Assembly (NCBI GenBank): GCA_963663165.1
Contig: OY760175.1
Span: 1,632,001 to 1,696,000 of the forward strand
Origin: an uncultured Desulfospira sp.
Lineage (GTDB): Bacteria > Desulfobacterota > Desulfobacteria > Desulfobacterales > Desulfobacteraceae
Length of the DNA stretch: 64,000 bases
Reading direction: 5' to 3'
Position numbers and translations under genes: made by a program
In this document: positions 1-26,212 of the stretch, piece by piece
Layout: each line of letters begins with the position of its first letter
How positions within the stretch are numbered: the stretch's first letter is position 1
Notes under the pieces: model-generated
The model's database searches: none
Told to the model about the DNA's origin: nothing
What the model saw: only the letters and a program-made list of their open reading frames with translations

Positions 1-675
1 CAAGGTGGCCATCACCACCCCGGGACAGGGGATCAGGCCCATGGCCACCGCTGCGAAAAAACCGAGAACCGGTTTTTCATCCTTAAGTTTTTCATGGGGT
101 TTTGCCCGAAGCCGGATAACGGCATCCGCAAACAGATATACCCCTAAGGCCAGGATCAGGGAGAAACTGACCTGCTGGGTGATCCTTGTAACCTGCTCCA
201 ATGAGGCATTGACAGAATAGTGAAGAACGGCCTTGACCATAATGACCAGCAGCATGCCGGAACCCGCATGGGTAAATGCCAGGATAACGGCAAACAAAAT
301 CCCCCGGGCCAGCCCGGGCCGGGCCCCCACCACATAAGAAGCGGCCGCGGCCTTGCCGTGCCCCGGCCCTGCAGAATGGACCACCCCGTAAACAAACCCC
401 AAAGCCAGCACCAGAGCAACCGGGCCGTATTGGCCGTTTTCCCGGGCACTGCGGATCAGGTAGCTCATCTTTTCACGCAGCAGCTGCTGCCAGCGGACAA
501 TGGTCAGGGACAACCCTGAACCCGGGCCCGGCCCTGCCTTTTCGGTTCTTACAACAGGGGATTGTTTCTGGGTAAAGGGATTGGCACACACCTTTGAATC
601 TGTCAGGAGAATACCGGCCATCAGCAGGCCGGCCATCAGGCCAATGGCCCCGGCATTAAAAAACGTTGAATTCAT
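1..675 (-). CDS. Nickel/cobalt transporter (NiCoT/RcnA-like), runs off the left edge
   Basis: Not in ORF track. Translated by hand from ATG 675 (ATGA overlap with upstream stop): MNSTFFNAG...YGVVHSAGPGHGKAAA...MGLIPCPG. The HxxGPGHGK and PCP motifs are typical of this family; partner is DUF1007. Confidence 0.8.
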   Translation of the reverse strand, partial: MNSTFFNAGAIGLMAGLLMAGILLTDSKVCANPFTQKQSPVVRTEKAGPGPGSGLSLTIVRWQQLLREKMSYLIRSARENGQYGPVALVLALGFVYGVVHSAGPGHGKAAAASYVVGARPGLARGILFAVILAFTHAGSGMLLVIMVKAVLHYSVNASLEQVTRITQQVSFSLILALGVYLFADAVIRLRAKPHEKLKDEKPVLGFFAAVAMGLIPCPGVVMATL

Positions 676-1277
676 GATCCGGCTTTAAAGGTTAAAAACA
701 AGGCATAAGGATTGACCGTGTCATAGTAAATCAGGGTGGATCTGTCAATATCGGCTTTTGAGGTAACGGTAAAATTATCCGCATTTTCAAACATCAGGTA
801 TTCTTTTTCCGGAAAATAAATGGCTGAATAAAATTCCGGGTCATAGGGAGAAATCACAACCTTTTTGGGGGTGGGCAGGGCCGTGACATGGCAGGGAATA
901 AAAAACTCATACACCAGGCTGCCTTTTACCACTTTGGCGTTAAAATCCTTGATAAACGTAACGGCAAAGGGCTTTCCCTCGATTTTAATATGAATGTAAT
1001 AATTGTAAGGGGCAATATAGGAAAATGCCCCTTCCTTGACCGCGGCCACTTCCGTTTGATCCAGGGCACCGTTCCGGTCAAGGTCAAAATCATCCAGGAT
1101 CATGGTGGAAAACATCTCATCAAAGGCCCATTTGACCCGAATTCCGGCCAAGCCATTTTGATCAAACACCACATGGGTCTGCTGGGCAATAAACACGTGG
1201 GGATGGCACATTCCCGTCCCTGCCCCGGCCGCCAGCACTATGATCCCGGCCATTACCGCCGTTAAAATCTGTTTCAT
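672..1277 (-). CDS. DUF1007 family periplasmic metal-binding protein
   Basis: Signal peptide followed by HPHVF motif and W-x-FDEMFS; start moved to MKQILT (1277). Confidence 0.85.
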   Translation of the reverse strand: MKQILTAVMAGIIVLAAGAGTGMCHPHVFIAQQTHVVFDQNGLAGIRVKWAFDEMFSTMILDDFDLDRNGALDQTEVAAVKEGAFSYIAPYNYYIHIKIEGKPFAVTFIKDFNAKVVKGSLVYEFFIPCHVTALPTPKKVVISPYDPEFYSAIYFPEKEYLMFENADNFTVTSKADIDRSTLIYYDTVNPYALFLTFKAGS

Positions 1278-1387
1278 CCTCAATTCCCTAAAATTCCTTT
1301 CCCGGCCTTTATAGTATAGATCAGGGCCGGTTTTCAAGAATTTGGAAACCGGTTCGAGGGAAAGGGCAAAAAAAAGAAATTTTTCTC

Positions 1388-1429: not shown

Positions 1430-1495
1430 ATAATGGAGCTTCACAAAAAAGTATTAAATAAACGAGACTTTCATCTTAATCAAATGGAGACAAAA

Positions 1496-1939
1496 ATGAG
1501 TACCGCTTTAATTGTTTACGGGTCCACCACAGGCAACACGGAATTCACCGCAGAAACCATTGAAGGCAGCCTTTCGGACAGCGGTTATAATGTGACCGTC
1601 CTCAATGCAGCCAACACCACCCCTTCTGTCCTCAACGATGAGTATGACCTGTATCTTCTGGGCAGTTCCACCTGGGGAGACGATGATATTGAATTCCAGG
1701 AAGACTTTGCCCCATTTTTTGACGACATGGGCGCGGACATCTCCCTGGAGGGGAAGAAATTTGCCATATTCGGGTGCGGGGACTCCACCTATGAATACTT
1801 TTGCGGTGCCGTAGACGCTCTTGAGGAACGGGTCCAGAAAATGGGCGCAAAGCTCATTTGTGATGGCCTTAGAATTGACGGCGACCCCGAAGAAGACGAA
1901 ATCAAAGAATGGGCACAGGACATCATCAATGCCGCATAA
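1496..1939 (+). CDS. fld: Flavodoxin (short chain)
   Basis: YGSTTGNTE, SSTWG, FGCGD and FCGAVD motifs; GGAG RBS before ATG 1496. Confidence 0.95.
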   Translation: MSTALIVYGSTTGNTEFTAETIEGSLSDSGYNVTVLNAANTTPSVLNDEYDLYLLGSSTWGDDDIEFQEDFAPFFDDMGADISLEGKKFAIFGCGDSTYEYFCGAVDALEERVQKMGAKLICDGLRIDGDPEEDEIKEWAQDIINAA

Positions 1940-5843: not shown

Positions 5844-8060
5844 TTATTTTTTTTCAGGCGGCGGCAGTGCCGGGCGGCCGGACAGGGCGGGGCGGGCCGC
5901 GTTCACCACGGCGGTCAGGGTGACCAGGTTGTGGATCAGGGCCCCGGCCAGGGGCGAGATCATGCCGGCGACCATTAAAGAAAGGACAAGGGCATTGGCG
6001 CCCATGGCAAAGGCATAGCTTTGTTTGATCACGGACAGGGTGTTTTTGCTGGATTCCAGGGTCCAGGCCAGGCTGGACAGTCCGCCCTGCTGAAGGACGA
6101 TGTCGGCATACTCCAGGGTCACGTCTTCGCCGGCCTCGCCCACGGCAAAGCTCAAAGCCGCCCTTGAAAATGCCGGGGTGTCATTGATGCCGTCCCCGGC
6201 CATGGCCACCACGGAACCGGGAAAATCAGCTTTTCTTTTTTCGATCCACCGGGCTTTGTCCTCGGGGGACATGCCCCATTTCACCTCATCAAATTTAAGG
6301 GCACGGGACAGCTCAGTGGTTCCGGCCCGGGTGTCGCCGGTGAGCAGGGCAATGTGGGTGATCCCGGCCTTTCTTAACCGCGCCAGGGTCTTAGGGGTGG
6401 CATCCTTGCGGATCATGTGGGAAGCGTGGATACACCCCAGAAGATGGCCGTCACAGGCCACAAAGACCAGGCTGCCGGAATCATCGGGATCTTTCTCCCC
6501 TGCTCCGTGGCCGTTTTTCAGGATACCCCGGTCTTTCATGAATTTTTTGGAGCCGGCCAGAATGGTCCGGCTGCCCGTGGTTCCGGCAACCTGTGCCTTG
6601 ACCCCGAGTCCCACAAAATACTTTCTGGATTCACAGGCCGGCACCTCCAGGCCTGTTTCATGGGCCTTCCGGGTAACGGCCCGGCTGATGGGATGATTCC
6701 AGGGCTGGAGCGCGGCAGCGGCAAACCCGAGAATGGTCTCTGGTTTGTACCGCCGGTCCATCACCTCAATATCCGTCACACTGGATACAGACTCGGTCAG
6801 GGTTCCGGTTTTGTCCAGGGCCAACGTGTTCACCGTTGCCGCGGTTTCCACATGGGAGCCGCCTTTGATGAGAATCCCGTTGGCAGCGGCATTGCCCATG
6901 GCCGTGGAGATGCCTGTGGATGTGGACAGGCGCAGGACGCAGGGACAGGTGACCATAATAGAGGTAATGGCCAGGAACAGGGACCCGCTCATTAAAAAGA
7001 CAATGGCGGCAAGGCCCAAAGAGACAGGAACCATGGCCTGGGAAACGGAAAGGCTGGTCCGGCCCAGTTCTCCCAAGTCATCCCGGGCCGATTCAATGAG
7101 CCGGATAATGGCGGCCATCCGGGTCTGCTCCCCGGTTTTCTCCACGGTCACCCGGATTTCACCCTCTTCCACCAGGGTTCCGGCCATGACCGGCATGCCT
7201 TCAAGTTTCACCACGGGCAGGCTTTCACCGGTCATGGCCGCCTCGTTGACCAGGGCCGTGCCTGAAAAAACCGTTCCGTCCACGGGGATGGATGCGCCCT
7301 GGCCCAGGACAATGACGTCTCCGGGGACGATATCGGTGATATCCACCTGAACCTGTACTCCGTCCACCAGTTTCCAGACCCGGGTCTGTTTGCCGGTGAG
7401 CATGTCCCGGACCAGGCGGCCGGTATGGTCCTGGATCCTGGATTCCATCCATCCGGACAGGTTGTACAGCCAGGCCACCAGGAGCGCGGTCAGGATATTG
7501 CCGGTAAACAAAGAGACATACAGCAGACCCGTAGAGATCAGGCTCATGTCCACGCGGCCCGTGGCCTTTACGTTTTCCACGGCCTGGCGCTGGATGGGCC
7601 GGGCCAGATAAAGGGTCAAAAGCCCCGGGATGCTGATGATCCCCCCGATAAGGGCGGCAGAGGAAAAGAGGGGGGCGGCGGCCCGCCGGAGCAGAAGAAA
7701 GGAAAGATAAAGCCCGGAAAACAACAAGGTCATGCCGGACACGTGGGACCGGCACAGCTGGGGGTCCTTTTCCGAACCAGACTTAATACTTTTGGAATCT
7801 GCCGTACCTTCCATGAGGCCGGTCAGTTTCCGGGAAAGGCCGTTGACCAGTTCGATGACCTGCCGGACCGGTATATCCCGGTCCGGATGGACCAGAATCA
7901 AAGACCCGGACTTGGGCCTGACCTGGGCCATGGCCACCCCGTCCATCCGGGCCAGTTCTTTTTCCACGGCCTTGCAACAGGCCGGCTGGCCCCGGAAAAT
8001 CGAAAACTGAATCCGGGTCCGGTATGGTTCCGCCTGCCGGATTTTATAACTTAGTGTCAC
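5844..8060 (-). CDS. Heavy-metal P1B-type ATPase (CPC), fez-cluster associated
   Basis: TGES, CPC, DKTGTLT, HP, GDGIND, C-terminal HN; Cys-poor HMA-like N-terminus with RxR. Confidence 0.9.
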   Translation of the reverse strand: MTLSYKIRQAEPYRTRIQFSIFRGQPACCKAVEKELARMDGVAMAQVRPKSGSLILVHPDRDIPVRQVIELVNGLSRKLTGLMEGTADSKSIKSGSEKDPQLCRSHVSGMTLLFSGLYLSFLLLRRAAAPLFSSAALIGGIISIPGLLTLYLARPIQRQAVENVKATGRVDMSLISTGLLYVSLFTGNILTALLVAWLYNLSGWMESRIQDHTGRLVRDMLTGKQTRVWKLVDGVQVQVDITDIVPGDVIVLGQGASIPVDGTVFSGTALVNEAAMTGESLPVVKLEGMPVMAGTLVEEGEIRVTVEKTGEQTRMAAIIRLIESARDDLGELGRTSLSVSQAMVPVSLGLAAIVFLMSGSLFLAITSIMVTCPCVLRLSTSTGISTAMGNAAANGILIKGGSHVETAATVNTLALDKTGTLTESVSSVTDIEVMDRRYKPETILGFAAAALQPWNHPISRAVTRKAHETGLEVPACESRKYFVGLGVKAQVAGTTGSRTILAGSKKFMKDRGILKNGHGAGEKDPDDSGSLVFVACDGHLLGCIHASHMIRKDATPKTLARLRKAGITHIALLTGDTRAGTTELSRALKFDEVKWGMSPEDKARWIEKRKADFPGSVVAMAGDGINDTPAFSRAALSFAVGEAGEDVTLEYADIVLQQGGLSSLAWTLESSKNTLSVIKQSYAFAMGANALVLSLMVAGMISPLAGALIHNLVTLTAVVNAARPALSGRPALPPPEKK

Positions 8061-9818: not shown

Positions 9819-10355
9819 TTATCCATCATGCACAAGAACGAATCCCCCCCTGCCCCGGATGTCCACAATATCCCTTACCGTCAGGAAGAGCAGCCTTGGG
9901 GCCTTAAGCCCGTATGCCTTGAACGACCATTTAAAAGCAAGGTCAATGGTTATTTTTCCGGATTCTTTTGCCACATAAAAGGTAATGGGCAATTGCCGGC
10001 GTTCTCCGATAAATTCGAGGACCGCAAGGATGTCGGCCCTGTAACGGCCGTCATCCTGAAGGACGAATTCCTTGCATTCCGTCATCTCAACTGAGGCTTC
10101 CGGGAATTTTTCCTGCTGCATGTAATCGACCATGGCCTTGTTCCGGTCGGCATACCCGGTGTCAAAAAACCGGGTCTGGGCCGTGGCCGAAGCGTTAAGG
10201 ATTTCAAGATGTTGAAAATCTATGCTGATTTGGGCGTCAATGCCCTTGATGCTCCACCCTTTAAAGGTGTGAAAAGGGGCATAGGCCGTAAAATCAACCC
10301 TGAAATCCCGGGACAGGGTATAGGCGTCTAATGTTTTTTCAATTTGGCAAGTCAA
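9819..10355 (-). CDS. YceI-like family protein
   Basis: F.TG..DRN..M..Y...EKFP and YGLKAP patterns; overlaps the ATPase stop. Confidence 0.7.
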   Translation of the reverse strand: MTCQIEKTLDAYTLSRDFRVDFTAYAPFHTFKGWSIKGIDAQISIDFQHLEILNASATAQTRFFDTGYADRNKAMVDYMQQEKFPEASVEMTECKEFVLQDDGRYRADILAVLEFIGERRQLPITFYVAKESGKITIDLAFKWSFKAYGLKAPRLLFLTVRDIVDIRGRGGFVLVHDG

Positions 10356-12657
10356 TCGGTTGTCCTTTCCGGGGGGGGATTTCGCCCTTGGTTTTGCCTG
10401 ACAGGGTATCCGGATTTTTATTTTGTTTCATGGGTTCTGACGGGGGTTCCCAGGTCAGAAGGCGGCCGGAATTGACTAGAATCCCCCCGGTGTGGAAAAT
10501 ATGAATCATCCCGGCCATGACCGGCGAAAGAATGCCCAACATGCCCAGCGCCGCACCAATAAGATCAGTAGATACAGCAAAATAGTGGTTCTGGTCAATA
10601 ACTTTCATGGTCTGGTGGCTTAAATTTCGCACTTTGACCAGCCCTTCCAGGTTGGCATCGGCCAGGGCGATGTCGGCCGCCTCCAGGGCAACTTCAGCCC
10701 CGCCGGCCCCTACGGCCACGCCGATATCGGCCCGGGCAAGGGCCAACGCATCGTTGACGCCATCCCCGATCATGGCCACCATGTGGTCTTTTTTCAATTC
10801 CTCCACCCGATCGGCTTTTTCTTCGGGCAGAAGCGGGGCCCGGCAATCGTCAAAGGGGAATATATCCATCATGGTCTGGGCCACCTCTTTGTTGTCGCCG
10901 GTGACCAGGTGGATGGATCTGACCCCGTCGGCCTTGAGATGGTTCAACACGGCCACGGCTTCAGGCCGGATGGGGTTGGCAATACCCATCATGCCCGTGG
11001 CACTGCCGTTTTTGGATACAAAGATGACCGTTCGGCCCTTGTTTCGTTCAGCCGCCGCCTTTTTATCAAACCAGCGAAGATCCACCTCGTTTTCTTCCAT
11101 GAACTGCCGGTTGCCCACCAGGACCACTTCCTCACAGCCGATATTGCAGGAAACCCCCCGACCGGCCTTGAATTCACAGACGGCGTGGGCCTCAACGTCC
11201 AGGTTTCTCTTTTTGGCTTCAGCCAGGATGGCCCGGGCCATGGGGTGCTGGTTATGGGACTCGGCCGTGGCCGCAAGGGACAGGATCATGTTTTCGGAAA
11301 TGGACGGGGTCCGGCCGGTAATGGTCATGATCTCGGGCAGGTCCTGGGTTAAGGTGCCGGTCTTGTCAAAGCAGAAGACATCGGTTTTGCCCACCCCTTC
11401 AAGATAAAGGCCCCCTTTAATAAGGATGGAGTGTTTGGCGGCATTGGCCAGGGAGGCGGTAACCGCCGACGATGCGGCCAGGACCGTGGCACAGGGACAG
11501 GACATGACCAGCATGACCGTCAGCGCCCGCAGAGGATCCAGGGTAAACACCAGGGTGGCCAGGGTGGCGGCAAGCCCGATCTTAAGCAGCCGGGCCGCCA
11601 GTTCATCGGCCTTGTGTTCGGCCGGGGCCTTGTTGGCCAAAGAATCCTCCACCATTCTCATGATACCGGCAAGGTAGGTGTCTTCTCCGGTTTTTACGGT
11701 CCTTATAAATAAGGTCCCCTGGGAAATAATGGTGCCGGCATAAACCTTGTCCCCGATATTTTTCACCACGGCCTCGGCCCTGCCGTTAATGGTGGCCTCG
11801 TCCACTAAGGCGTCCCCGTCCAGGATTGTACCGTCCACCGGGATCTTCTCCCCGGTATGGGCGGCCACAATATCATCCACGCGGATCTGCGCCACCGGGG
11901 TTTCCACTTCCATGCCGTCGACCATCACATAGGCATTGGGCGGGGTAACGTCCAGGATATCCCTGATGGCCTTGCGGGACCGCTGGGCCACATAGTCTTC
12001 CGTGGTCTCGGCCACATTGTATATCCAGAGGATCTGGATGGCGGAAAAGGCCTCTCCCATGCAGATGGTGGCAATGGCACCGGCGGCCAGAAAGGGTTTA
12101 ACCGTCACCTTTTTCTTTTGGGCCGTATCCGCAATTGCCTCTTTGACCAGGGGAATAGTGCCGGCCATGGCGGCCAGGCCCAAAAAGCTCAAGGGATTCT
12201 GGGCCAGAACCGCACCGAAAACAAACCGGCGGACAACGGCATAAACCATGACAGAGGACAGCCATGCCACTCTTTTTAATTTGGTCCCAAATCCGGCGTC
12301 ACCGGCGCATTCGCACGCCAGGATATCTGCGGCAGGCCCGGCAGCGGGTTCCAGATCGAATTTTTTCGGGGATAATACCTGGCTGAGGATGGCGGCCATA
12401 ATGGTTCGCGCGGTTACTGCCGACGAATCAAAGGTAACAATGACGGACCCGGAAACCGATCTGGCCTCGGCCCCTGTAATTCCGTCAACCCCTTTCAGGT
12501 AAAGGGCCATCCATCCGGATTTTTTTTCATTGTACCGAAGGGCTTTTACCTGAACCCGCATCCGCCCGGCCATGGACTGCCGGACACAGATCCCGTTCTT
12601 GCTCAAAATACTTTTACTGATATAGCTTACACTATTATATTTTTTGTTATTCATCAA
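10339..12657 (-). CDS. P1B-type ATPase-like protein (CPC) with TGE replaced by NGR
   Basis: CPC, DKTGTLT, HP and GDGVND present; the A-domain reads VDEATINGRAE. Confidence 0.9.
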   Translation of the reverse strand: MMNNKKYNSVSYISKSILSKNGICVRQSMAGRMRVQVKALRYNEKKSGWMALYLKGVDGITGAEARSVSGSVIVTFDSSAVTARTIMAAILSQVLSPKKFDLEPAAGPAADILACECAGDAGFGTKLKRVAWLSSVMVYAVVRRFVFGAVLAQNPLSFLGLAAMAGTIPLVKEAIADTAQKKKVTVKPFLAAGAIATICMGEAFSAIQILWIYNVAETTEDYVAQRSRKAIRDILDVTPPNAYVMVDGMEVETPVAQIRVDDIVAAHTGEKIPVDGTILDGDALVDEATINGRAEAVVKNIGDKVYAGTIISQGTLFIRTVKTGEDTYLAGIMRMVEDSLANKAPAEHKADELAARLLKIGLAATLATLVFTLDPLRALTVMLVMSCPCATVLAASSAVTASLANAAKHSILIKGGLYLEGVGKTDVFCFDKTGTLTQDLPEIMTITGRTPSISENMILSLAATAESHNQHPMARAILAEAKKRNLDVEAHAVCEFKAGRGVSCNIGCEEVVLVGNRQFMEENEVDLRWFDKKAAAERNKGRTVIFVSKNGSATGMMGIANPIRPEAVAVLNHLKADGVRSIHLVTGDNKEVAQTMMDIFPFDDCRAPLLPEEKADRVEELKKDHMVAMIGDGVNDALALARADIGVAVGAGGAEVALEAADIALADANLEGLVKVRNLSHQTMKVIDQNHYFAVSTDLIGAALGMLGILSPVMAGMIHIFHTGGILVNSGRLLTWEPPSEPMKQNKNPDTLSGKTKGEIPPRKGQPIDLPN

Positions 12658-14237: not shown

Positions 14238-16391
14238 TTATTTCTTTTCCCCGGCCTTACGGTTATTTTGTTCCGGGCTTTCACCCGCTTTGGACTGCTG
14301 CTCTTCAATGCCTTTCAAGGGCTGCTTTTCCCTTAACCCCGCATAGGACAGAATCCCCACCGTGCTGGTATTATGAAGGATGGCGGCGGTGACCGGGTTG
14401 ATCAATCCAAAGGTGGCCAGCATCAGGAAGAGCGAGTTAAGCCCCACAGCAGAAACAAAGCTGTGTTTAATGGTATCCTGGCACCGCAGGGCGATTTCCC
14501 GCCCGGCCAACAGACAGTTTAAGTTCTCCTGCATTAATATCACCTGGGCCGACTCCTTGGCAAGGTCCGCCCCTGAGGGCAGGCAGATGCCCACATGGGC
14601 CGATACCAGGGCCGGTGCATCGTTGACCCCGTCGCCGATAAACCCGAGATACGCCCCCTCTTTTTTAAGGTCTTCCACAATGGCGGCCTTGTCCTCGGGC
14701 TTAAGTTCGGCCCTGACCTCGTCCACGGCCGGCAGTTCTTTGGCAAGCGCCTTTGCCGTAACTTCCGTATCCCCGGTAAGAATGATAATCTTTTTAATAC
14801 CTGTTTTTTTCAAATTGTCCAGAACTTTTGGCGCTTCGGGCCGGAGTTCATCCCTTAACCCCAGTATTCCCACAAGCTTTTCTTCCCTTGTCACATAGAG
14901 CAGGCTCTTGCCCTGCTTTTGAAAGGCCAGGGCCGGTTTGTCCACCAGGGAGCAGTCAATGCCTTCATCATCTTCAACAAAATGGCGGGATCCCACCAGG
15001 ATATTGTCGTTGCTGATATAGGCCGACACCCCGTGGGCCACCACAAAGTCCACCTGGCTGGTGGGGGGCAGGTCAAGCCCCTTTTCTCTGGCAGCCCGTA
15101 CCACGGCGCGGGCGGCCGGGTGGGAGTAATGTTCCTCTGCTGAAGCGGCCAGGGCCAGTACCTCATCCGGGGCCATGCCGTTCACCGTGTGAACGTCGGT
15201 CACGGTCAGCTCTCCTTTGGTCAATGTGCCGGTCTTGTCAAAGACCAGGGTATCCAGCCGGGCCAGACTGTCCATGGCCTGGGAGCCTTTGAGCAGAACC
15301 CCCTGCCGGGCCGCCGTGTACATGGCCACCCTTACCGCCACCGGGCTGGACAATTTGATCACACAGGAATAGTCCACGGTAAGAACGGCGGCCGCCTTTT
15401 CCAGATCCCGGGTCAATCCGAAAAGGCCGACCCCCAACCCCAAGGTAACCGGGACCAGCTTGTCGGCGAGTTCATCGCTTTTCTTCTGGGCTTCGGATTC
15501 GTAATTGAGGGAGTCTTCCAAAAATTTGGAAATCCGGGCCACCGAAGTTTCAGCGCCCACTTTCAGGGCCTTGAACACGATCCGCCCGTCTTCAATGACC
15601 GACCCTGAAATCACCTCAGTACCGGGCTTCACATGAACGGGAACAGATTCGCCGGTGACGGAACTCTGGTTCACGGCAGCCTCGCCCCTGACCACCACCC
15701 CGTCCAGAGGAATCATCTCGCCGGGCCCGCAGACCACCTGGTCTCCGATCCTTGCATCATTAAAGGGGATCTGGACCTCCTGGCCGTCCACCTCTATCCA
15801 GATATGTTCGGTCTCGGGCTTGAGCAGGCTTTTCAGCAATTTGTTGGTCCGGTTCTCGCTGAGCGCTTCCAGGTATTCCCCCAGGGAAAGCAAAAATACA
15901 ATGGTTGCGGCCGTAAAATAATCCCTGCGGAACAAGGAAAAGGCCACGGCTGATCCGTCCAGGACCTCCACACTGATTTTACGGTTTACCAGACAGACCA
16001 GGGCATCGATCATAACCGGCAGGGACAGTATCAGGGCGATGGGCATGCAGCCCAGAGCCGGCAGAACCAGACAGCTTGCGGCAAGGGCCCCTTTTGCGGC
16101 CAGATTAATCAAAGACGGGCCGTTTTTCCGGTTGTTTTTCCCGTTAAAGGCATCCAGGGGCAGGTCACTGATACAGGCCAGAATCGAAGACCTTGTTTCA
16201 GGCCGGCCGTCATACCGGGCGATAATGGAGGATGCCCGGGTATTGATCCGGGCATTTTCAACCCCGGGGATGCCTTCAAGGCGAGCCTCCAGAAAATCCG
16301 GGTCCAGTTCCGGGTCCCTTAAAAACCGCCCCTTAAGGCGGATCCGGTGGGGCAGTTCATTGACGATCTGAACCGGACGCGGCGCCATCAT
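14238..16391 (-). CDS. fezB: P1B-6 ATPase, FezB-like (ferrosome ATPase)
   Basis: N-terminal RIR, TGES, membrane DYSC in place of CPC, DKTGTLT, HP, GDGVND, LHN. Confidence 0.8.
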   Translation of the reverse strand: MMAPRPVQIVNELPHRIRLKGRFLRDPELDPDFLEARLEGIPGVENARINTRASSIIARYDGRPETRSSILACISDLPLDAFNGKNNRKNGPSLINLAAKGALAASCLVLPALGCMPIALILSLPVMIDALVCLVNRKISVEVLDGSAVAFSLFRRDYFTAATIVFLLSLGEYLEALSENRTNKLLKSLLKPETEHIWIEVDGQEVQIPFNDARIGDQVVCGPGEMIPLDGVVVRGEAAVNQSSVTGESVPVHVKPGTEVISGSVIEDGRIVFKALKVGAETSVARISKFLEDSLNYESEAQKKSDELADKLVPVTLGLGVGLFGLTRDLEKAAAVLTVDYSCVIKLSSPVAVRVAMYTAARQGVLLKGSQAMDSLARLDTLVFDKTGTLTKGELTVTDVHTVNGMAPDEVLALAASAEEHYSHPAARAVVRAAREKGLDLPPTSQVDFVVAHGVSAYISNDNILVGSRHFVEDDEGIDCSLVDKPALAFQKQGKSLLYVTREEKLVGILGLRDELRPEAPKVLDNLKKTGIKKIIILTGDTEVTAKALAKELPAVDEVRAELKPEDKAAIVEDLKKEGAYLGFIGDGVNDAPALVSAHVGICLPSGADLAKESAQVILMQENLNCLLAGREIALRCQDTIKHSFVSAVGLNSLFLMLATFGLINPVTAAILHNTSTVGILSYAGLREKQPLKGIEEQQSKAGESPEQNNRKAGEKK

Positions 16392-16816
16392 GGGGCCCCG
16401 TCCTTTCCGGCATGGGGTTTGGGCTTCATGGCCCGGTCAATGGCATAGCCGGCCCCGGCCAGAGCCGCTGCGGTCAGGGCAATTTCCCATACGGTCTTTT
16501 TGGGGGTCAGGGATAAAATCACCGTGGCGGCAGCGCCTTTGGCAATGCCGTTGACCACGGCCTTTGTTCCGGTCATGGTGTTGTTCTGCACATCCACCAT
16601 GTTGGCGCCGATGGTGGCGGCACTGGCTATGGCCAGGGTGGCCGCAGCAAATTCCAGGGGGGTGTAGGTATCCTGGGGGATGGGGATGGGGGCAAAAAAA
16701 GGCCCCGGTGCAGGGGTTAACGCAAGCCCGGTTCCATCAGAAGTTAAAAAGACCGGCCGGGCTGATCCGGCGGCGATCCCGGGAGCGCCGCCGGCCGTAT
16801 TCATCTGGGTTTTCAT
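16388..16816 (-). CDS. Ala-rich small membrane protein, paralog of 8523..8933
   Basis: IGANM..M...AVVNGIAKGAAA; overlaps the fezB-like start. Confidence 0.75.
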   Translation of the reverse strand: MKTQMNTAGGAPGIAAGSARPVFLTSDGTGLALTPAPGPFFAPIPIPQDTYTPLEFAAATLAIASAATIGANMVDVQNNTMTGTKAVVNGIAKGAAATVILSLTPKKTVWEIALTAAALAGAGYAIDRAMKPKPHAGKDGAP

Positions 16817-16934: not shown

Positions 16935-17444
16935 CTATACCGCGTCACAGCATATTGATTCACACATGGGTTCCCTGTCCGGTTCGCCAAAAATGCTTAA
17001 AATCCGGTCTGCTGTGACCTTGGCCGCAATGCAGGATTTGGTTTCTGCGGTAATCCCAAGCCGGCCGCCGGTGTCCATGGGCTCATAGCCGTAAGCCGTG
17101 CGCACCACCTTTTCATAGGCGCAACGAAGCTGCCGGAAAGAGGCCTCAACTTCCGGGTATTCATTGGAGGCCCGGAAAGGCAGCCGGATAAAATCCTCAA
17201 TTTCCCCTCTTTTAAAGTGGGGAACACTCAAATAATGGAACCGTTCAGGCTGCCAGCCGGGGCGCCGCTCGTTTGTCCCGGGCATGCAGGTGCTTGAATG
17301 GGAATCGGGCACCACCGGGATGCTGCTCTCGATGCTCACCGCATTGACGGCCAATTTTTTTTCAAAATCCTCAAGGATCAGGGAGTATTTCAGAAAAGGC
17401 CTGAAATTGCCGCGTTTTTTCGTTATGGTCCAGTTGATCTGCAT
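16935..17444 (-). CDS. Hypothetical protein
   Basis: Start MQINW 4 nt after the VWA gene stop; third gene of the AAA-VWA operon. Confidence 0.75.
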   Translation of the reverse strand: MQINWTITKKRGNFRPFLKYSLILEDFEKKLAVNAVSIESSIPVVPDSHSSTCMPGTNERRPGWQPERFHYLSVPHFKRGEIEDFIRLPFRASNEYPEVEASFRQLRCAYEKVVRTAYGYEPMDTGGRLGITAETKSCIAAKVTADRILSIFGEPDREPMCESICCDAV

Positions 17445-17448
17445 AAGT

Positions 17449-18723
17449 TTAACTCTCCAGACAGATGGTGTTGCCAAAGGGCGGTTTACTGCCGCCGGGA
17501 CCGGCCCCGCCGGGACCTGTCTTTACCCAGAGGACCGGGTATGGGGGCCGGTTTGAAGGAAACAATTTACATTCAAGATCGGTCAGGTAAATCAGGCAGG
17601 CCGGGCTGACCCGCTGATCAGCGATAAACTCAAAGGCCGGGCGAAAATCGGTTCCCCCGCCCCCTTTGGGCTCAAACTTTATGGGCAGGTCCCACTGATT
17701 AAACACCTGATACCGGTTCACGGCCATATCCGTATACAACAGGTGAAGCTTGGACGGGAAACATTCCAGAATGGCAGATAGTTCTGCGGCAAACTGGTCC
17801 AGTTCTTCGGGCAGGACAGACCCTGAGGTATCAAGGGCCACAGCCAGTTCGCTCAACTCATGGGTGTTCAAAGAGGGAAAATAAAGGTTCTGGTGAATAT
17901 ACCGCCGGTTGGGCGTGGTCCAGGAGTAATCCGACCGGGCTGAATTCTGGATAAACCGGGACAAAAGCTGCCGCCACCCCAGTTTGGGATTAATCCTTTC
18001 CTGGACCAGCCGCTCCAGCCCCTTTGGCAGCTTTCCCATGCGCCGGGCATTGGCCGCGGCCTGGACCAGGGCCTGGTCCCAGTCAATGTCCTCATCTTCC
18101 CCGGTTCCCGGCGCATCTTCCAGGTCCCGGACCTCGCCGGCCATGCCCGGATCAGTTCCGGGATCTTCCTGATTTTCATCCTGGCCGGTATTTCCCGGGT
18201 CATCAAGTGGCAACGGGTTTCGGCCCTGTTCGGGATCTGTCTCTTTCAGGGCTTCACTGTTGGGGTCGCCGACTTGCCCACCCCTGTCCTCTTCATTTTT
18301 CTCATCCGCCAGGGTCTGATAAACCGCATCGGCGCTTTTGTTCCGGAACCTGTCATCAAACAAAAACCCGTCGGGCAGGTCCATGCCCGCGTCCAAAAGA
18401 ATGGGATTAACGGCATAATCACAGGCCCGGTTCCACAGATCCTTGTCCCGGCTGCCGCGCCGTATGTGGTGGCCGCAGGCCGGGTGCATGACCGTATGGG
18501 CGCAAAGGCCGATGAGCTTTTGCCTTGGCAGGGTGCTGATGTAAGAAGGGTTATAGGCAAATACCCGGCCGTCGGTCCAGGCGGTGTGGCAGGAAGGGTC
18601 CGGCGTGACCTTTAACCTAAGGGCCAGGGACGCAAAAAACGGCTGGGCCATGACCATGGAAATCCTGGCCCGGACCACCCGGTCATGGGCAGACTGTTCT
18701 ATGGAGGAAAGGGGCTTGATCAT
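17449..18723 (-). CDS. DUF2201-type metallopeptidase-like/VWA domain protein
   Basis: TAWTDG, HTVMH...H, WN.ACDYAVN, acidic linker, MIDAS DTSGS, GGGGTDF, YLTD; ATGA overlap with the AAA gene. Confidence 0.85.
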   Translation of the reverse strand: MIKPLSSIEQSAHDRVVRARISMVMAQPFFASLALRLKVTPDPSCHTAWTDGRVFAYNPSYISTLPRQKLIGLCAHTVMHPACGHHIRRGSRDKDLWNRACDYAVNPILLDAGMDLPDGFLFDDRFRNKSADAVYQTLADEKNEEDRGGQVGDPNSEALKETDPEQGRNPLPLDDPGNTGQDENQEDPGTDPGMAGEVRDLEDAPGTGEDEDIDWDQALVQAAANARRMGKLPKGLERLVQERINPKLGWRQLLSRFIQNSARSDYSWTTPNRRYIHQNLYFPSLNTHELSELAVALDTSGSVLPEELDQFAAELSAILECFPSKLHLLYTDMAVNRYQVFNQWDLPIKFEPKGGGGTDFRPAFEFIADQRVSPACLIYLTDLECKLFPSNRPPYPVLWVKTGPGGAGPGGSKPPFGNTICLES

Positions 18724-19703
18724 ACCAGAACTTGGGCATGGCATGAGGCCCAGTCTGCGAAGGCCGGGGTCCGGACCAGGCCGGCATGTTTACGGACCGC
18801 CTCCCGAACCAGGAGAACGGAAAATTCTACGGGCAGCCGGGATGCCCAGGCCATGACGGGGTCGGCGGTATCTTCTTTAAGGGCATGGCTCATCATTTCG
18901 CACAGGGCAAAGAGGACCGCCGGATCTTTGGGGATCTCAATGCCCTCAGGGTCTTCTATAATATCGGCGGCTTCGGGAAGGCAATGCCAGATTTTTAGAA
19001 ATCCTGAAAACTCTGCGGCAGCGCCCTTGCCCACGGCACCGGCCACCATGGAACCAAGAAGGCCCGGGTCAGGAGCGGCCTTTACCAGCCTTGAGACAAA
19101 TTCCCAGGACCTTGGGGAAGGAAAGGCCCGGTCGTCTTTTTCAGGATCAAAATCGTGGAGCAGGGCGGGCCGGAAACGAATAAAGGCAACGACCTCCGGT
19201 GCAATGGCATTGGCACCGGCCCAGGTGAGCCAGTCCGGCACATCCACCTCAAATTCCAGATGAACAAACCGGTTGGCCAGGGCCGAGGGCATGCGATGGG
19301 AAACGGCCCGGTCCTGCTCCCGGTTGCCGGCAGCGATCACAGACCAGCCTTCAGGGAGCTCATACTCCCCTAACCGGCGGTCAAGGACTAACTGGTAACA
19401 GGCCGCCTGAACCAGGGGAGGCGCCGCGTTCAGTTCATCCAAAAACAGCACCCCCCTGCCCTGCCGGGGAAGAAAGCCCGGGGCGCACCATTGGGAGACC
19501 CCGTCCGGGGTGATCTTAGGGATTCCCCGTAAATCCACAGGGTCCAGGAGAATGGCCCGGATGTCAATGAGGGAGAGGGACAAAGCATCGGCGGTCTGCC
19601 GGACCACCTGGCTCTTTCCAATGCCCGGCGGACCCCAGAGAAACGCGGGCTGCCGGATGTCAAGCAAGGTATTCAGGGCCGTTGAAATTTGGGATGGCTT
19701 CAT
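18720..19703 (-). CDS. MoxR/AAA_5-type AAA+ ATPase
   Basis: GPPGIGKS, LFLDELN, AAGN, ALANRF, SPRSW. Confidence 0.9.
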   Translation of the reverse strand: MKPSQISTALNTLLDIRQPAFLWGPPGIGKSQVVRQTADALSLSLIDIRAILLDPVDLRGIPKITPDGVSQWCAPGFLPRQGRGVLFLDELNAAPPLVQAACYQLVLDRRLGEYELPEGWSVIAAGNREQDRAVSHRMPSALANRFVHLEFEVDVPDWLTWAGANAIAPEVVAFIRFRPALLHDFDPEKDDRAFPSPRSWEFVSRLVKAAPDPGLLGSMVAGAVGKGAAAEFSGFLKIWHCLPEAADIIEDPEGIEIPKDPAVLFALCEMMSHALKEDTADPVMAWASRLPVEFSVLLVREAVRKHAGLVRTPAFADWASCHAQVLV

Positions 19704-19785
19704 GTTTTAAAACATTACTTTTATTATATTAAAATTTTTTAGTTATTCAATTCGTAGATTTGTTAATATTAAAAATACTATTTTT

Positions 19786-19813
19786 TGTCAATCTAAATGT
19801 TAGGGATCTCTAA
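19786..19813 (-). promoter_or_regulatory. -35 TTGACA with upstream palindrome TTAG-GGATCT-CTAA (19800-19813)
   Basis: Read directly upstream of the AAA gene. Confidence 0.65.
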
Positions 19814-19888
19814 CGTAAAATTTTCCTGTATCGGATATGGTTCCCTTGGTTTAAATTGTTTTCTTTGGATTTTGTGGATTCAGGAGTT

Positions 19889-19985
19889 TAATGTATAAAA
19901 TTGGGACTTGGGATATGGGACTTGGGACTTGGGGAGGCCGTGGATGCCGCAATCCCCAGGTCCCATATCCCAAGTCCCAAGTCCA
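19889..19985. repeat. 97-bp GGGACTT/AAGTCCC heptamer palindromic repeat, copy 1
   Basis: Near-identical inverted copy at 34868-34964. Confidence 0.9.
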
Positions 19986-20023
19986 TTTTTTTGGAGATTT
20001 AATTGAATGAATTCCCCCGGCCC

Positions 20024-20179
20024 AAAAGCAGAGAGGCAGCGTCCGCCAACCGGATGCTGCCTCTCTTAAGGCAAAATAAAGTAACATTAAGGAGGTTTTG
20101 CTTAAGCCGCTGTGACCTCAAAGGTGGAATGGCTTTTGAAGTCATCATGGGGTGAGGATGAAAGCAATACCCTTATGGT
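20024..20179 (-). ncRNA. Candidate sRNA (~155 nt)
   Basis: TTGACA-17-TAGAGT promoter (20213-20185), internal hairpin, ACCUCCUUA motif, 16-bp terminal hairpin (20030-20066). Confidence 0.55.
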
Positions 20180-20231
20180 GAGTCACTCTATATTAAAAAA
20201 TACTGCGTGTCAAGGAAAAGTTTTATAAAAC

Positions 20232-20486
20232 TTATTTTTTTATTTCCGTCTCATTTTCAAGTGCTTTCTGCTGCTTTTTGACTCTTTTTTCAGGCTGGTA
20301 CAAGAAGTGATGCCAGAGGGCGGCCCCGGCCAGCAGGGCACCGGCACCGGTGTGGATGTTTTTTAAAGTCCTGGAACGGTTCCCCTTTAAAAACGGAGCC
20401 GTGATGACGGCCACCCCGAGGGAGGCGGTCATGGCAATTTTGGCAATTTCTTTTTTAGTCTCGAGATCGAGCGGCTTTTCTGGCAT
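20232..20486 (-). CDS. Small two-TM membrane protein
   Basis: MPEKPLD...AKIAMTASL...IHTGAG...WHH; His residues in the TM segments. Confidence 0.75.
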   Translation of the reverse strand: MPEKPLDLETKKEIAKIAMTASLGVAVITAPFLKGNRSRTLKNIHTGAGALLAGAALWHHFLYQPEKRVKKQQKALENETEIKK

Positions 20487-20598
20487 TTCTTCGTTTTTTT
20501 CTCTGGATGGTTTTTTTAGTGCCTTTCCCGGTTTCAACAGCAAGGGCACAGGTCAGTACGGTTGCAACCCCACAGACGATAGGAATAAATGGTGCCAT
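20455..20598 (-). CDS. 47-aa hydrophobic/basic peptide (not in ORF track)
   Basis: GGAGG RBS; MAPFIPIVCGVATVLTCALAVETGKGTKKTIQRKKRRNARKAARSRD. Confidence 0.65.
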   Translation of the reverse strand: MAPFIPIVCGVATVLTCALAVETGKGTKKTIQRKKRRNARKAARSRD

Positions 20599-20668: not shown

Positions 20669-20697
20669 ATATTAGTTTTAACTAAATTAATAGTCAA
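20669..20697 (-). promoter_or_regulatory. Promoter TTGACT-17-TAATAT overlapped by TTAG-TTTTAA-CTAA (20672-20685)
   Basis: Read directly from the sequence. Confidence 0.7.
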
Positions 20698-23902: not shown

Positions 23903-23995
23903 AAGTTATGTTTTTTACGCCAATCAAAACGAAGAGTCAATCCCTTTTTACACACATATTACTATCTTCGCCAAAAAAATATATTTTAGTAAGAA

Positions 23996-26212
23996 CTAAC
24001 TCAATGCCTCAAGACGGCTTCCCATGCTATGTTCCATGAACTGCTCGGCCTCATCTCCGGACAAAGGCTTTGAAAAATAATACCCTTGTGCAAACCCGCA
24101 TTCCAGCCGGGACAACGCTGTCAGCTGATCCAAAGTTTCTACGCCTTCAGCAACACTGCTCAAGCCCAGGCTCTTTCCTAGCAGAAGGATGGATTTAACA
24201 ATTTCAAAGCTTTCTTCATTTTCGGTCAAAGAGCCGATAAAGGAACGGTCGATCTTGATCTGGTCAATGGGAAAGCGCTGAAGGTAGGACAAGGAAGAAT
24301 AACCGGTCCCAAAGTCATCAATGGCCAGGATAAACCCGGCTTCCTTCAAGGCATTGAGCTTTTCAACAGCCCATTCCCGGTGCTCCATGAGCAGGGTTTC
24401 GGTAAATTCCAGCTTGATGTCCCAGGGGTTAAGGCCATTCCGGTTAACCGCCGCCATGATCTTTTCAGAAAAATCCGCCTCAATGAACTGCTTGACGGAA
24501 ATATTGATGTTCATGGTCAGGTCAAGGGCAAACCGGTCCTTCCAAAGCGCCATCACGGTACAGGCCTGTTCGGTGATCCACTGCCCCATGGGGATGATCA
24601 GGCCCGTATCTTCGGCAATGGGAATAAACTTATCGGGCAGCACCAGCCCCTGAGTGGGGTGAGCCCACCGGACCAGGGCTTCAAACCCTTTAATATGCTG
24701 GTCTCTGGTACAGACAATGGGCTGAAAAAACAGCACCAGTTCCTCTTTTTCAATGGCCTTTCTCAACTCCTGCTCAATGGTGACCGTGGCCATCAGCCGC
24801 TCATGCATTCCCGGTGAAAAAAACTTAAACTGGGCCTTGCCCGAATCCTTTGCATGGTACATGGCAAGGTCCGCATCCCGGATCAGCTGGCCGGCATCTT
24901 CATAAGGGCGGGTGTCCATGACAATACCGATGGAGGCTGAAATATGAATGTCCCGGTTCTGGATGGGAAAGGGGGCCTCCACCGCATCCCTGATCCGTGA
25001 GGCAATCCGTGTAACCGTTTCCCGGTCATGGGTTTGGGGCAGCAGAACGGCAAACTCATCTCCCCCCAGCCGGGCCAGGGTGTCGTTGGTTCTAAGACAG
25101 TCCCGGATCCTTGCGGATACGGCCTTGAGCAGCTCATCCCCGGCCGGATGCCCCATGGTGTCATTAACGCCTTTAAACCGGTCCAGGTCTATGAGCATCA
25201 CACTGAAATAATCATCCGGGGTGGTCCCCTGCTTTGAAAGCGCATAATTCAGGCGCTCACTGAACAACAGCCGGTTGGGGATTCCGGTCAAGGCATCATG
25301 GTAGGCCTGATGCTTGAGCTGCTCTTCAAACATTTTGCGCTGGGAAATATTTTCATAAAAGACAAACACCCCCTGGACCCGCCCGTTCACCTTGACCGGG
25401 TAAGCCAGGGAACTGACCGGAATCTGAAATCCCCGCCGGTGAACGCACCGGGATTCCATGGACACGGTCTGTCCGGCCAGGGCCCGCTGGATTAAATCGT
25501 TCTGGGCTTTTTTTCTTTCCTCGCTGATAAAAAAATCCGGCCTTTCCCGGTCCATAATTTCCCGTCCCGAATACCCCAGAAGCTTTGATGCGCTGTCGTT
25601 GACATTGATGATCCGGCCATGGGTTCCCACCAGCACAATGGCATGGGGCGAATTCATGAACAGCTCCCTGAAATAAGCCTGATGCTTGTGGGCGGCGGCC
25701 TGGCGGTCCTTCAAGTCTCCGGTCATCCGGGTGACCTTGTCCTTTTCTTCCTGGAGCTGGACAATGGAATGGTTGATCCGGCAGTCCTTTTCTTCCACCA
25801 TCCGGGACAGGCGGTCCCGGTGGTGTTTGAGTTCCAAATGGGACCTGATCCGTGCCAGGGTGACTGCCGGGGTGACGGGTTTGCGGATATAGTCCACGGC
25901 CCCGACCTCAAACCCGTAAGCTTCGTCTGAATCATCGACCTTGGCCGTGACAAAGATAATGGGGATGCTTTGGGTTTTATGGTGGGATTTGAGGTGCCGG
26001 GCCACTTCATATCCGTCCATTTCCGGCATCATGATGTCCAGCAGAATCAGGGCCGGGGGTCGGTCGGATTTGGAAATCTCAAGGGCCGCCATGCCGTTGA
26101 CCGCCACGCTGACGGCATAATACTCCGACAGCATGGCCCCTAACACCTCAATATTGGCCGGGGTATCGTCCACAATCAGTATCCGGTCTCTTTCAGTGCC
26201 GCAAGTTGTCAT
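23996..26212 (-). CDS. REC-PAS-GGDEF-EAL response regulator
   Basis: IVDD, LDIMMP, GGDEF, EAL, DDFGTGYSS. Confidence 0.95.
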   Translation of the reverse strand: MTTCGTERDRILIVDDTPANIEVLGAMLSEYYAVSVAVNGMAALEISKSDRPPALILLDIMMPEMDGYEVARHLKSHHKTQSIPIIFVTAKVDDSDEAYGFEVGAVDYIRKPVTPAVTLARIRSHLELKHHRDRLSRMVEEKDCRINHSIVQLQEEKDKVTRMTGDLKDRQAAAHKHQAYFRELFMNSPHAIVLVGTHGRIINVNDSASKLLGYSGREIMDRERPDFFISEERKKAQNDLIQRALAGQTVSMESRCVHRRGFQIPVSSLAYPVKVNGRVQGVFVFYENISQRKMFEEQLKHQAYHDALTGIPNRLLFSERLNYALSKQGTTPDDYFSVMLIDLDRFKGVNDTMGHPAGDELLKAVSARIRDCLRTNDTLARLGGDEFAVLLPQTHDRETVTRIASRIRDAVEAPFPIQNRDIHISASIGIVMDTRPYEDAGQLIRDADLAMYHAKDSGKAQFKFFSPGMHERLMATVTIEQELRKAIEKEELVLFFQPIVCTRDQHIKGFEALVRWAHPTQGLVLPDKFIPIAEDTGLIIPMGQWITEQACTVMALWKDRFALDLTMNINISVKQFIEADFSEKIMAAVNRNGLNPWDIKLEFTETLLMEHREWAVEKLNALKEAGFILAIDDFGTGYSSLSYLQRFPIDQIKIDRSFIGSLTENEESFEIVKSILLLGKSLGLSSVAEGVETLDQLTALSRLECGFAQGYYFSKPLSGDEAEQFMEHSMGSRLEALS

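Follow-up and report, generated by a model that had tools for sequence, protein, structure and literature searches.

A conserved three-gene AAA+/VWA module with a glutamate-less zincin-like adaptor and candidate iron-responsive operators in sulfate-reducing bacteria

The triad and its candidate iron-responsive operators

A 64,000-nucleotide stretch of DNA from an uncultured Desulfospira sp. (GenBank assembly GCA_963663165.1, contig OY760175.1, positions 1,632,001 to 1,696,000; hereafter the window, whose own coordinates are used throughout) contains three consecutive minus-strand genes that are the subject of this study. They encode an AAA+ ATPase of the AAA_5 class (18720-19703, 327 aa, assigned with Pfam and the open reading frame (ORF) list), a DUF2201 von Willebrand factor A (VWA) protein (17449-18744, 431 aa) composed of a DUF2201_N domain, a disordered acidic linker and a VWA domain with a metal-ion-dependent adhesion site (MIDAS), and a third protein of an orphan family (hyp3; 16935-17444, 169 aa, delimited by alignment with its homologs). 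We found that the three genes form a conserved triad, and the best-supported reading of the data, which we judge to be modestly probable, is that the triad is an AAA+/VWA remodelling module of an iron-starvation regulon.

The three genes are translationally coupled. The stop codon of the AAA+ gene and an in-frame ATG of the VWA gene share the sequence ATGA at 18720-18723, and 4 nt separate the VWA stop codon from the ATG of the third gene. The ATG at 18723, instead of the listed start at 18744, may be the true start of the VWA gene, matching a database record of 424 aa (P0005). The third ORF was listed as 16935-17477 from a TTG codon; because all 29 aligned homologs start at the ATG at 17444 (MxIxWxIxKKRGN...), the gene was taken as 16935-17444. 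An initial annotation, made from the sequence without database searches, had described closely coupled AAA+, DUF2201 VWA and hypothetical genes lying upstream of and co-oriented with a fezB-like operon. Both statements were borne out, the third gene being followed in the same orientation by genes for a FezA-like protein, a P1B-ATPase and a FeoA-domain protein.

To collect homologous loci, species-representative genomes were searched with a VWA protein profile; of 515 confirmed matches the best 80 (cited below by L numbers) were examined, the third gene being sought by tblastn with the window proteins. The third gene, always placed directly after the VWA gene, was present in 65 of the 80 loci, establishing the AAA+, VWA and third genes as a conserved triad. 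Its hosts were mostly Desulfobacterales, Desulfobulbales and Desulfovibrionales, together with Desulfomonilaceae, an Oceanispirochaeta metagenome-assembled genome (MAG) and MAGs labelled Thiotrichaceae. Among the 15 loci without the third gene, L052, L060 and L065 were short contigs or contigs ending just past the VWA gene, and eight were alphaproteobacterial loci with prophage features, seven of them beside a phage DAM-like methylase gene. A 287-aa gene lay between the AAA+ and VWA genes in six of these eight, and a relative of it was placed likewise in L064 and L078. This accessory protein had no PHROG match and was rejected as a homolog of the third protein (hhalign probability 1.1%). One Desulfosarcina MAG holding a triad (L051) also carried two AAA+/VWA pairs with the HExxH motif and no third gene (L069 and L074), so that domesticated and mobile forms coexist in one genome.

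We then asked which genes accompany the triad. All ORFs of the 80 loci were clustered, and clusters present in at least four loci were annotated. The recurrent clusters included FeoB (12 loci), P1B-ATPases (11), FeoA (8), DUF4198 proteins (two clusters, 7 and 6), flavodoxin (6), Fur (6) and MntP (6), as well as ZnuA/ABC-3 proteins, TonB-dependent receptors, Peripla_BP_2 proteins and an AraC-type regulator. Clusters without an evident connection to metals were frequent too, namely chemoreceptors (10 loci), ABC-type ATPases (9) and GGDEF proteins (7). Genes of metal homeostasis were present in 30 of the 48 triad loci that were at least 15 kb long, compared with none of ten loci lacking the third gene.

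The region upstream of the AAA+ gene was examined for regulatory sites. A perfect palindrome of the form GTTAG-N6-CTAAC (GTTAGAGATCCCTAAC) occupies 19799-19814 and is a candidate iron-responsive operator of the triad; its core, TTAG-N6-CTAA (TTAGGGATCTCTAA), spans 19800-19813, and it is with the end of this core, at 19813, that the initial annotation, which spoke of a perfect operator, had closed the segment. The palindrome lies 7 nt upstream of a minus-strand promoter-like site, TTGACA-17-TATTAA (19763-19791); TTGAAT-16-TATAAT (19750-19723) is a further entry of the promoter scan. The spacer of the first promoter-like site holds another perfect palindrome, AAAAATA-G-TATTTTT (19771-19785). This AT-rich sequence (AAAAATAGTATTTTT) was rejected as an operator, its single copy in the window being at chance level (2.14 expected).

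Three sister operators with the TTAG-N6-CTAA core were found in the window. TTAGTTTTAACTAA (20672-20685) lies in the TTGACT-17-TAATAT promoter that precedes the genes for small membrane proteins in the fez cluster, TTAGTAAGAACTAA (23986-23999) within the promoter-like site of feoA-feoB, and TTAGCAAAAACTAA (1416-1429) directly before a flavodoxin gene (1433-1939). The four copies compare with 0.29 expected, and none of 100 shuffled sequences reached four. All four precede genes that are expected to answer iron starvation, if the triad is counted with flavodoxin, feoAB and the fez small genes, and the triad accordingly looks like a member of an iron-starvation regulon.

The core was also found outside the window. 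It occurred ahead of the AAA+ gene, at a distance of up to 600 nt, in seven loci (L006, L007, L013, L018, L019, L023 and L039), all from Desulfobulbales or Desulfomonilaceae, and, judged by coordinates, in or near the feoA upstream region of L001, L036 and L041 and in the fez region of L019. The loci held 33 copies per 1.39 Mb, vs 19 per 6.74 Mb in the genome of the window. In L013, L018 and L019 three tandem copies precede the triad, spaced by about 60 and about 120 bp in L018 and L019; such an arrangement in Desulfobulbus-type loci, from an order for which the delta Fur box has been reported as lacking (PMC545781), suggests cooperative binding of an iron repressor.

As to the regulator, a DtxR-family repressor gene (Fe_dep_repress and Fe_dep_repr_C domains, 129 aa) lies 13 kb before the window, and two Fur-family genes are found elsewhere in the genome. 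IdeR/DtxR boxes have a TTAGG...CCTAA character. In addition, DtxR and Fur genes are described as common near fez clusters in the ferrosome preprint (10.1101/2020.01.10.902569). On these two grounds, a DtxR-type protein is the candidate that probably binds the TTAG-N6-CTAA palindrome here.

Fur boxes were scored with the consensus of the delta-proteobacterial Fur box, WTGAAAATNATTTTCAW, which was derived by Rodionov et al. 2004 (PMC545781), whose text also describes Desulfotalea as being without this box. Scoring covered 200 nt upstream of the AAA+ gene, with the upstream regions of the other genes of the same loci, feoAB and fur themselves included, as controls. In Desulfovibrionales-type loci a box with at most three mismatches was present in 12 of 23 triad promoters vs 24 of 317 controls (Fisher P = 1.9e-7), and one with at most two mismatches in 7 of 23 vs 3 of 317. 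The box was not enriched in the other triad loci (2/37 vs 10/399), where the TTAG-N6-CTAA core is found instead. Candidate operators of iron-repressor type, as Fur boxes or as TTAG-N6-CTAA, are therefore conserved in triad promoters across species. A classical delta Fur box was rejected for the window's own triad promoter, in which the best site had 4-5 mismatches.

A zincin-like adaptor, its motor and the third protein

The VWA protein scored above the cut-offs of both models of the DUF2201 family (PF13203 and PF09967; 175.7 and 91.9 bits), matching DUF2201_N, described as a 'putative metallopeptidase domain', at E 1.9e-51 and the VWA-like DUF2201 domain at E 4.4e-26. It also matched phrog_1314 over its full length (E 1.1e-90). 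Residues 79-93 read GLCAHTVMHPACGHH, in which HTVMH (residues 83-87), followed by PAC-G-HH, stands in place of the HExxH of the family, so that the catalytic glutamate (Glu) of an active zincin metallopeptidase is missing. When 30 members of the clade were aligned, H83, H87, H92 and H93 were invariant and C90 was kept in at least 90% of sequences. The MIDAS residues, DTSGS at 305-309, T365 and D389, were likewise present and invariant. An AAA+ gene beside and coupled to a VWA gene whose product keeps its MIDAS is the arrangement of a MoxR-VWA pair. The initial annotation had noted the change from HExxH to HTVMH with retention of the histidine ligands and the MIDAS, and these features turned out to characterize the clade as a whole. 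C52, C108, C383 and C392 were also invariant in the 30 members, C108 being part of a family-wide WNxACDY motif; a second metal or redox site at these cysteines is possible.

Conservation of the Glu-less motif was examined further. The Glu was absent from all 120 nearest VWA homologs, whose motif is H[T/V/L/I/S]V(M/L)H, with PAC-x-HH next to it in almost every case. HExxH was found in 133 of 149 wider cluster representatives (36-56% identity), which had been drawn from 18,798 DUF2201 cluster representatives at E<=1e-3, and in every prophage-type locus with a readable motif. It was also kept in 11 triads among the 80 loci (L056, L061, L062, L066, L068, L070, L072, L073, L075, L079 and L080). A FastTree tree was built from 108 rows, comprising the window protein, locus proteins of at least 330 aa and every fourth full-length representative, and leaving out shorter rows and eight loci with an ORF outside the main cluster. 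All Glu-less proteins formed one clade of 50 rows with SH-like support of 88; the HExxH triads adjoined it in basal positions, and the prophage and other forms lay beyond. Two changes of the Glu state were counted, one of them being a row whose motif escaped the pattern. The tree is unrooted, and its simplest reading is that a HExxH pair gained the third gene and that a single loss of the Glu followed.

The Glu position is taken by varying, mostly hydrophobic residues, so no substitute base is apparent there. Given the clade-wide absence of the Glu together with the invariant histidines and MIDAS, a non-proteolytic, metal-binding role is reasonable for the Glu-less clade. Some of the basal triads that keep HExxH stand beside fez genes, so loss of the Glu does not define the iron-linked module, and their HExxH implies that the ancestral activity may have been proteolytic.

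The AlphaFold2 model of the VWA protein had a mean predicted local distance difference test (pLDDT) score of 79.9, with values below 50 in the linker. This linker, which joins the two adaptor domains, is disordered, strongly acidic and about 60 residues long (about 157-216). Fold searches used the whole 431-aa model and were filled by VWA matches. By VIA, the C-terminal domain has a VWA fold, with Z scores of 12.5 for the CLCA1 VWA domain, 10.3 for the NorD VWA domain and 10.2 for the MDN1 MIDAS domain, and the likeness extends to integrin I-domains; Foldseek retrieved VWA domains at E 6.5e-5 and weaker. The DUF2201 profile gave nothing better than E 0.25 against solved structures. By title or abstract, none of the literature found on DUF2201 was functional, and we found no protease activity shown for any DUF2201 protein.

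The AAA+ protein scored 30.3 bits against Pfam AAA_5 (PF07728; cut-off 22) and belongs to the AAA_5 (MoxR/midasin/dynein-like) group. It contains the Walker A motif GPPGIGKS and the Walker B motif FLDELN, and residues G24-S31, D89, E90 and N127 (sensor-1) were invariant in 29 sequences. It matched phrog_1297 over its full length (E 2.2e-99), and its best match among solved structures in the PDB was midasin (E 1.9e-12).

The third protein had no match in Pfam, NCBIfam, PHROG or PADLOC. We found 54 homologs in a collection of 5.8 billion proteins, all unnamed and without Pfam domains and, where labelled, from Thermodesulfobacteriota or Desulfobacteraceae. The AlphaFold2 model (pLDDT 91.6) consists of a five-stranded sheet and two long helices. 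At E<=1e-3 no PDB entry was matched by Foldseek, a wide VIA-align search reached a best Z of 4.0 with generic beta-sandwich-like rows, and unnamed clusters in the ESM Atlas scored 0.88 at best. No structural family can be assigned to the modelled protein, which does not by itself prove a new fold. Complex prediction for the VWA and third proteins gave a score of 0.00 (mark 0.32), which counts neither for nor against binding. The window protein ends in a Cys-rich tail, ...EPMCESICCDAV (16935-16975), that is absent from the 29 aligned homologs.

Proposed role of the module and alternative explanations

In the mechanism that we propose, the three proteins would form one machine that is switched on by iron starvation. 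Its motor would be the AAA_5-class ATPase, whose catalytic motifs are intact. The VWA/MIDAS domain of the adaptor would grip an acidic residue (carboxylate) of the client, by analogy with other MoxR-VWA pairs, while the Glu-less zincin-like domain, through H83, H87, H92, H93 and C90, would bind metal or client without cutting. The 169-aa protein would be a private subunit that serves as specificity factor or client. The module would descend from an AAA+/HExxH-VWA pair common in phages, to which the third gene was added in sulfate reducers, and these would have put it under an iron repressor, Fur in Desulfovibrionales and a TTAG-N6-CTAA-binding, probably DtxR-type protein here. By analogy with NorQ/NorD and other MoxR-VWA pairs, a metalloprotein or metal transporter would be remodelled for iron insertion, extraction or hand-over under scarcity, and the triad is in this sense probably a remodelling chaperone.

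Several observations weigh against the remodelling module of an iron-starvation regulon. The third gene occurred in three of 151 genomes (counting that of the window) sampled evenly across the phylum, a rare and patchy distribution that fits a mobile accessory module. No metal gene lay within 10 kb in 18 of the 48 long triad loci. The TTAG-N6-CTAA core has 19 copies in the 6.74-Mb genome, and other spacings have 20-29, so that there is no excess; none of the ten other intergenic copies examined in the genome adjoins an iron gene, and the core, being too short, was rejected as a genome-wide regulon marker. A good Fur box was missing from 11 of the 23 Desulfovibrionales-type loci. The ATPase fell below the cut-off of the MoxR-proper model AAA_3 (PF07726; 24.2 bits, cut-off 27), so that 'MoxR-type', as it was first called, is a loose label, and at E<=0.01 its profile matched no solved MoxR, NorQ, CbbQ or RavA chain. 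Iron-dependent expression is predicted from the operator and Fur-box sites and metal binding by the N-terminal domain from its conserved residues. Complex formation, chaperone action, the identity of the regulator and the client are what we infer.

An alternative that is possible but unlikely gives the triad a dedicated role in assembling or maintaining the ferrosome (Fez) system or FeoB, in which it would load, activate or recycle the Fez P1B-ATPases or FeoB, or remodel ferrosome membrane proteins. The surroundings of the triad in the window speak for it. The triad is embedded, between a small GxxxG-protein gene and the fezA-like and fezB genes, in an enlarged fez cluster with P1B-ATPase genes at 5844-8060, 10339-12657 and 14238-16391 and genes for FezA-like, GxxxG and FeoA-domain proteins. 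The next downstream gene (16388-16816, minus strand) encodes a hydrophobic protein of 142 aa that is FezA-like by the description in the ferrosome preprint (Grant et al., bioRxiv 10.1101/2020.01.10.902569) and has a homolog adjoining FezB in L019; it is separated from the third gene by 118 nt, within which the terminator scan lists no terminator. The FezB-type P1B-ATPase gene (14238-16391, minus strand; TIGR01525, E 1.7e-147) follows. One operator core is common to feoA, the fez small genes and the triad. Moreover, Fez-type ATPases adjoin the triad in about ten loci, among them ATPases with 53-66% identity to the window FezB (L019, L072, L073 and L076) and FezH-like ATPases (L018, L029, L036, L041 and L056), and feoAB lies within 10 kb in 11 of the 48 long loci.

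The wider set of loci, however, argues against so specific a role. Regular presence of the triad in or near fezB clusters was not found: a P1B-ATPase gene lay within 10 kb in 11 of the 48 long loci, feoAB or a P1B-ATPase gene in 17 and neither in 31, and the triad and the fez genes are arranged differently from locus to locus. We checked five triad genomes without an adjacent fez gene, in four of which a FezB-like gene was distant. FezB orthologs with 74, 53 and 52% identity were located 0.2 to more than 4 Mb away in a Desulfobacter MAG, Desulfosarcina variabilis and Maridesulfovibrio, respectively, giving a range of 52-74% for orthologs of the window FezB in other triad genomes; the match in Nitratidesulfovibrio had 42% identity. 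No FezB ortholog was found in the Desulfoluna draft genome, whose best P1B match had 32% identity. As most triads are far from fez genes and one genome has no FezB ortholog that we could find, the ferrosome- or Feo-specific role is a minority reading. The text of the ferrosome preprint, too, names no AAA+ or VWA gene among the fez or neighbouring genes. The initial annotation had proposed a non-proteolytic metal-binding machine for ferrosome or Feo assembly; the first half of this proposal remains reasonable from the conserved residues, while the second is weakened by the 17 of 48 loci and the distant FezB genes.

We also considered a regulated protease or iron-sparing disassembly system, in which the HExxH form would degrade iron-rich or iron-regulatory proteins and the Glu-less form would either retain activity through another base or act as an unfoldase. 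AAA+ proteins are common feeding partners of proteases, the DUF2201_N domain is of zincin-like type, and the Glu is kept in most wider relatives (133/149) and in the 11 basal triads, three of which (L056, L072 and L073) stand beside fez ATPases, in line with an ancestral activity that was possibly proteolytic. The chances of this explanation are nonetheless low. In the 120 nearest homologs the Glu position is occupied throughout by T, V, L, I or S with no replacement base, no report of protease activity of a DUF2201 protein was found by title or abstract, and the family has no solved structure.

A bolder form of the remodelling module, and one to which we give equally little credence, is that the dead zincin is a Fe(II) site formed by His83, His87, His92/93 and Cys90. 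This would make the triad an ATP-driven chaperone for ferrous iron that, under starvation, carries Fe(II) from FeoB or from dissolving ferrosomes (Fez ATPases) to priority clients, with the 169-aa protein providing docking or selectivity. If true, it would be the first machine of its kind for trafficking Fe(II) in the cytosol of anaerobes, and a phage protease module turned metallochaperone.

A very unlikely explanation is that the triad represents a phage or defence module, domesticated or remnant, without an iron role, which insertion into variable islands brought next to iron genes. The full-length matches to phrog_1297 and phrog_1314 and the patchy distribution agree with such an origin, as do the alphaproteobacterial relatives beside a phage DAM-like methylase. 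Homologs were found in 721 of 50,697 phage records, where the form is a two-gene pair that bears the Glu. In addition, a Desulfospira MAG that is 93% identical to the window has about 5.4 kb between the fez small gene and the AAA+ gene (L001:3614-9042); the same junction in the window (19704-20232) measures about 0.5 kb, which places an insertion or deletion exactly there. Yet the phage homologs are at most 31.5% identical, domain annotation of the window ORFs revealed no phage genes beside the triad, and the best PADLOC match was to IetA (E 0.001) over 35 residues of the P-loop, the IteA model scoring 18.1 bits against a cut-off of 510. The metal-gene linkage recurs in three orders with different neighbours, compared with none of the ten loci without the third gene, and Fur boxes and TTAG-N6-CTAA sites lie directly upstream. 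Of the two contexts between which the neighbourhoods of the homologs were to decide, the close clade thus shows the iron linkage, while the wider family is common in lytic phages. Finally, a chelatase-like system of BchI/BchD or CobS/CobT type, in which a tetrapyrrole or other cofactor would receive Fe(II), is extremely improbable: although class I chelatases have the AAA+/VWA architecture, the BchD VWA model matches the VWA domain (Z 9.8) and the ATPase partially matches phrog_249, 'porphyrin biosynthesis' (CobS-like; E 6.6e-11), this last match is limited to the P-loop half, the third protein has merely 169 aa, and no CobN/BchH-type large subunit or tetrapyrrole gene is among the recurrent neighbours.

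Further features were recorded around the triad. An imperfect inverted repeat of 39 nt (19897-19991; 79% complementary, 17-nt loop), composed of GGGACTTGGGA-like units and possibly a REP-like element or a structured one, lies between a terminator (20030-20066) and the AAA+ promoter. A membrane protein of GxxxG type with 84 aa, homologs of which accompany FezB in L018, L019, L072, L073 and L076, is encoded at 20232-20486 (minus strand), and the start of its gene is overlapped by a 46-aa ORF (20458-20598, minus strand) with a hydrophobic N-terminal half, an Arg/Lys-rich tail and a good Shine-Dalgarno sequence. At the left end of the window, a DUF1007 gene (672-1337, minus strand) and the flavodoxin gene (1433-1939, plus strand) diverge from the region with a TTAG-N6-CTAA site, by which the iron island reaches that end.

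Significance and comparison with known systems

How ferrous iron moves among Feo uptake, ferrosome storage and iron-demanding enzymes in anaerobes is largely obscure, and no cytosolic Fe(II) chaperone machine is established. The analysis defines a conserved three-gene module that, in three sulfate-reducing orders, seems to belong with the genes of iron starvation, and it gives the module's parts, its probable origin, a datable loss of the Glu and candidate operators. For DUF2201, a family with 18,798 cluster representatives and no known function, this would be a first physiological context, in one branch. Carriers of the module that can be cultivated, Desulfosarcina variabilis, Desulfobacter and Pseudodesulfovibrio, make the question directly testable.

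The closest functional parallel that we discuss is NorQ/NorD, a MoxR-class AAA+/VWA pair described as inserting non-heme FeB into cNOR (PMC9976466, PMC13036017). The triad resembles it in the two-gene AAA+/VWA-MIDAS architecture and the link to iron, and the NorD VWA chain 9qh8_G aligned with the window VWA domain over 136 residues (Z 10.3, root-mean-square deviation 3.1); remodelling and non-proteolytic action are assumed for both. The two systems differ in that no NorQ chain was matched by the window AAA+ protein at E<=0.01, the triad has an obligatory third gene and no nor genes lie near it. To our knowledge, NorD does not carry a zincin-like DUF2201_N domain, unlike the adaptor of the triad.

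CbbQ/CbbO, RavA/ViaA, CoxD/CoxE, BchI/BchD and CobS/CobT likewise combine an AAA_5/MoxR-like motor and a MIDAS VWA adaptor encoded side by side, often for metal-cofactor insertion or the remodelling of complexes. The window ATPase differs from these pairs in missing the AAA_3 model, and we know of none among them with a zincin-like adaptor domain or a 169-aa third protein. The phage pairs of phrog_1297 and phrog_1314 (for example in N4-like, rV5-like and jumbo phages) belong to the same two families over their full length and have adjacent genes. Phage and prophage-type pairs differ from the triad in keeping HExxH, in lacking the third gene, some having the non-homologous 287-aa gene between the two, in showing no iron-gene neighbours (0/10), and in their low identity (at most 31.5%).

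With fez clusters the triad shares, in the window, its place within an enlarged cluster and an apparent common iron-responsive promoter element, and in several relatives an adjacent Fez-type ATPase. It differs in that it is not among the conserved fez genes, which the ferrosome preprint gives as FezA-H, DUF4405, FeoA-domain and DUF2202 (10.1101/2020.01.10.902569), and most triads are not beside fez genes. The terms AAA, VWA and von Willebrand do not occur in the main text of the preprint, and its legend on fez-neighbouring genes lists FeoA, FeoB, receptors, ABC transporters, Fur and DtxR.

A last comparison concerns an operon rather than a characterized system. Rodionov et al. 2004 (PMC545781) described a three-gene Desulfovibrio operon for hypothetical proteins, including AAA+ and VWA-type proteins, that is preceded by tandem Fur boxes, and left its role in iron homeostasis open. 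This operon is probably the triad. The 23-nt string of overlapping Fur boxes of the G20 operon had no match in 401 sampled Desulfovibrionaceae genomes, a sample that may omit that species; a literature search on the G20 genes Dde_0492-0494 and Dde_0499-0501 found no relevant content, and one joining Desulfovibrio, Fur, MoxR and von Willebrand found NorQD work only. The statement in the initial annotation that the role was not known to be described must be qualified to the extent that the operon, if it is the same one, was flagged in 2004, and the triad may account for a Fur-regulated operon that has been unexplained since then. The regulation was partly anticipated in the 2004 work. Within MoxR-like AAA+/VWA systems, the triad is distinguished by an adaptor derived from a zincin, a third subunit of an orphan family and its apparent place in an iron regulon.

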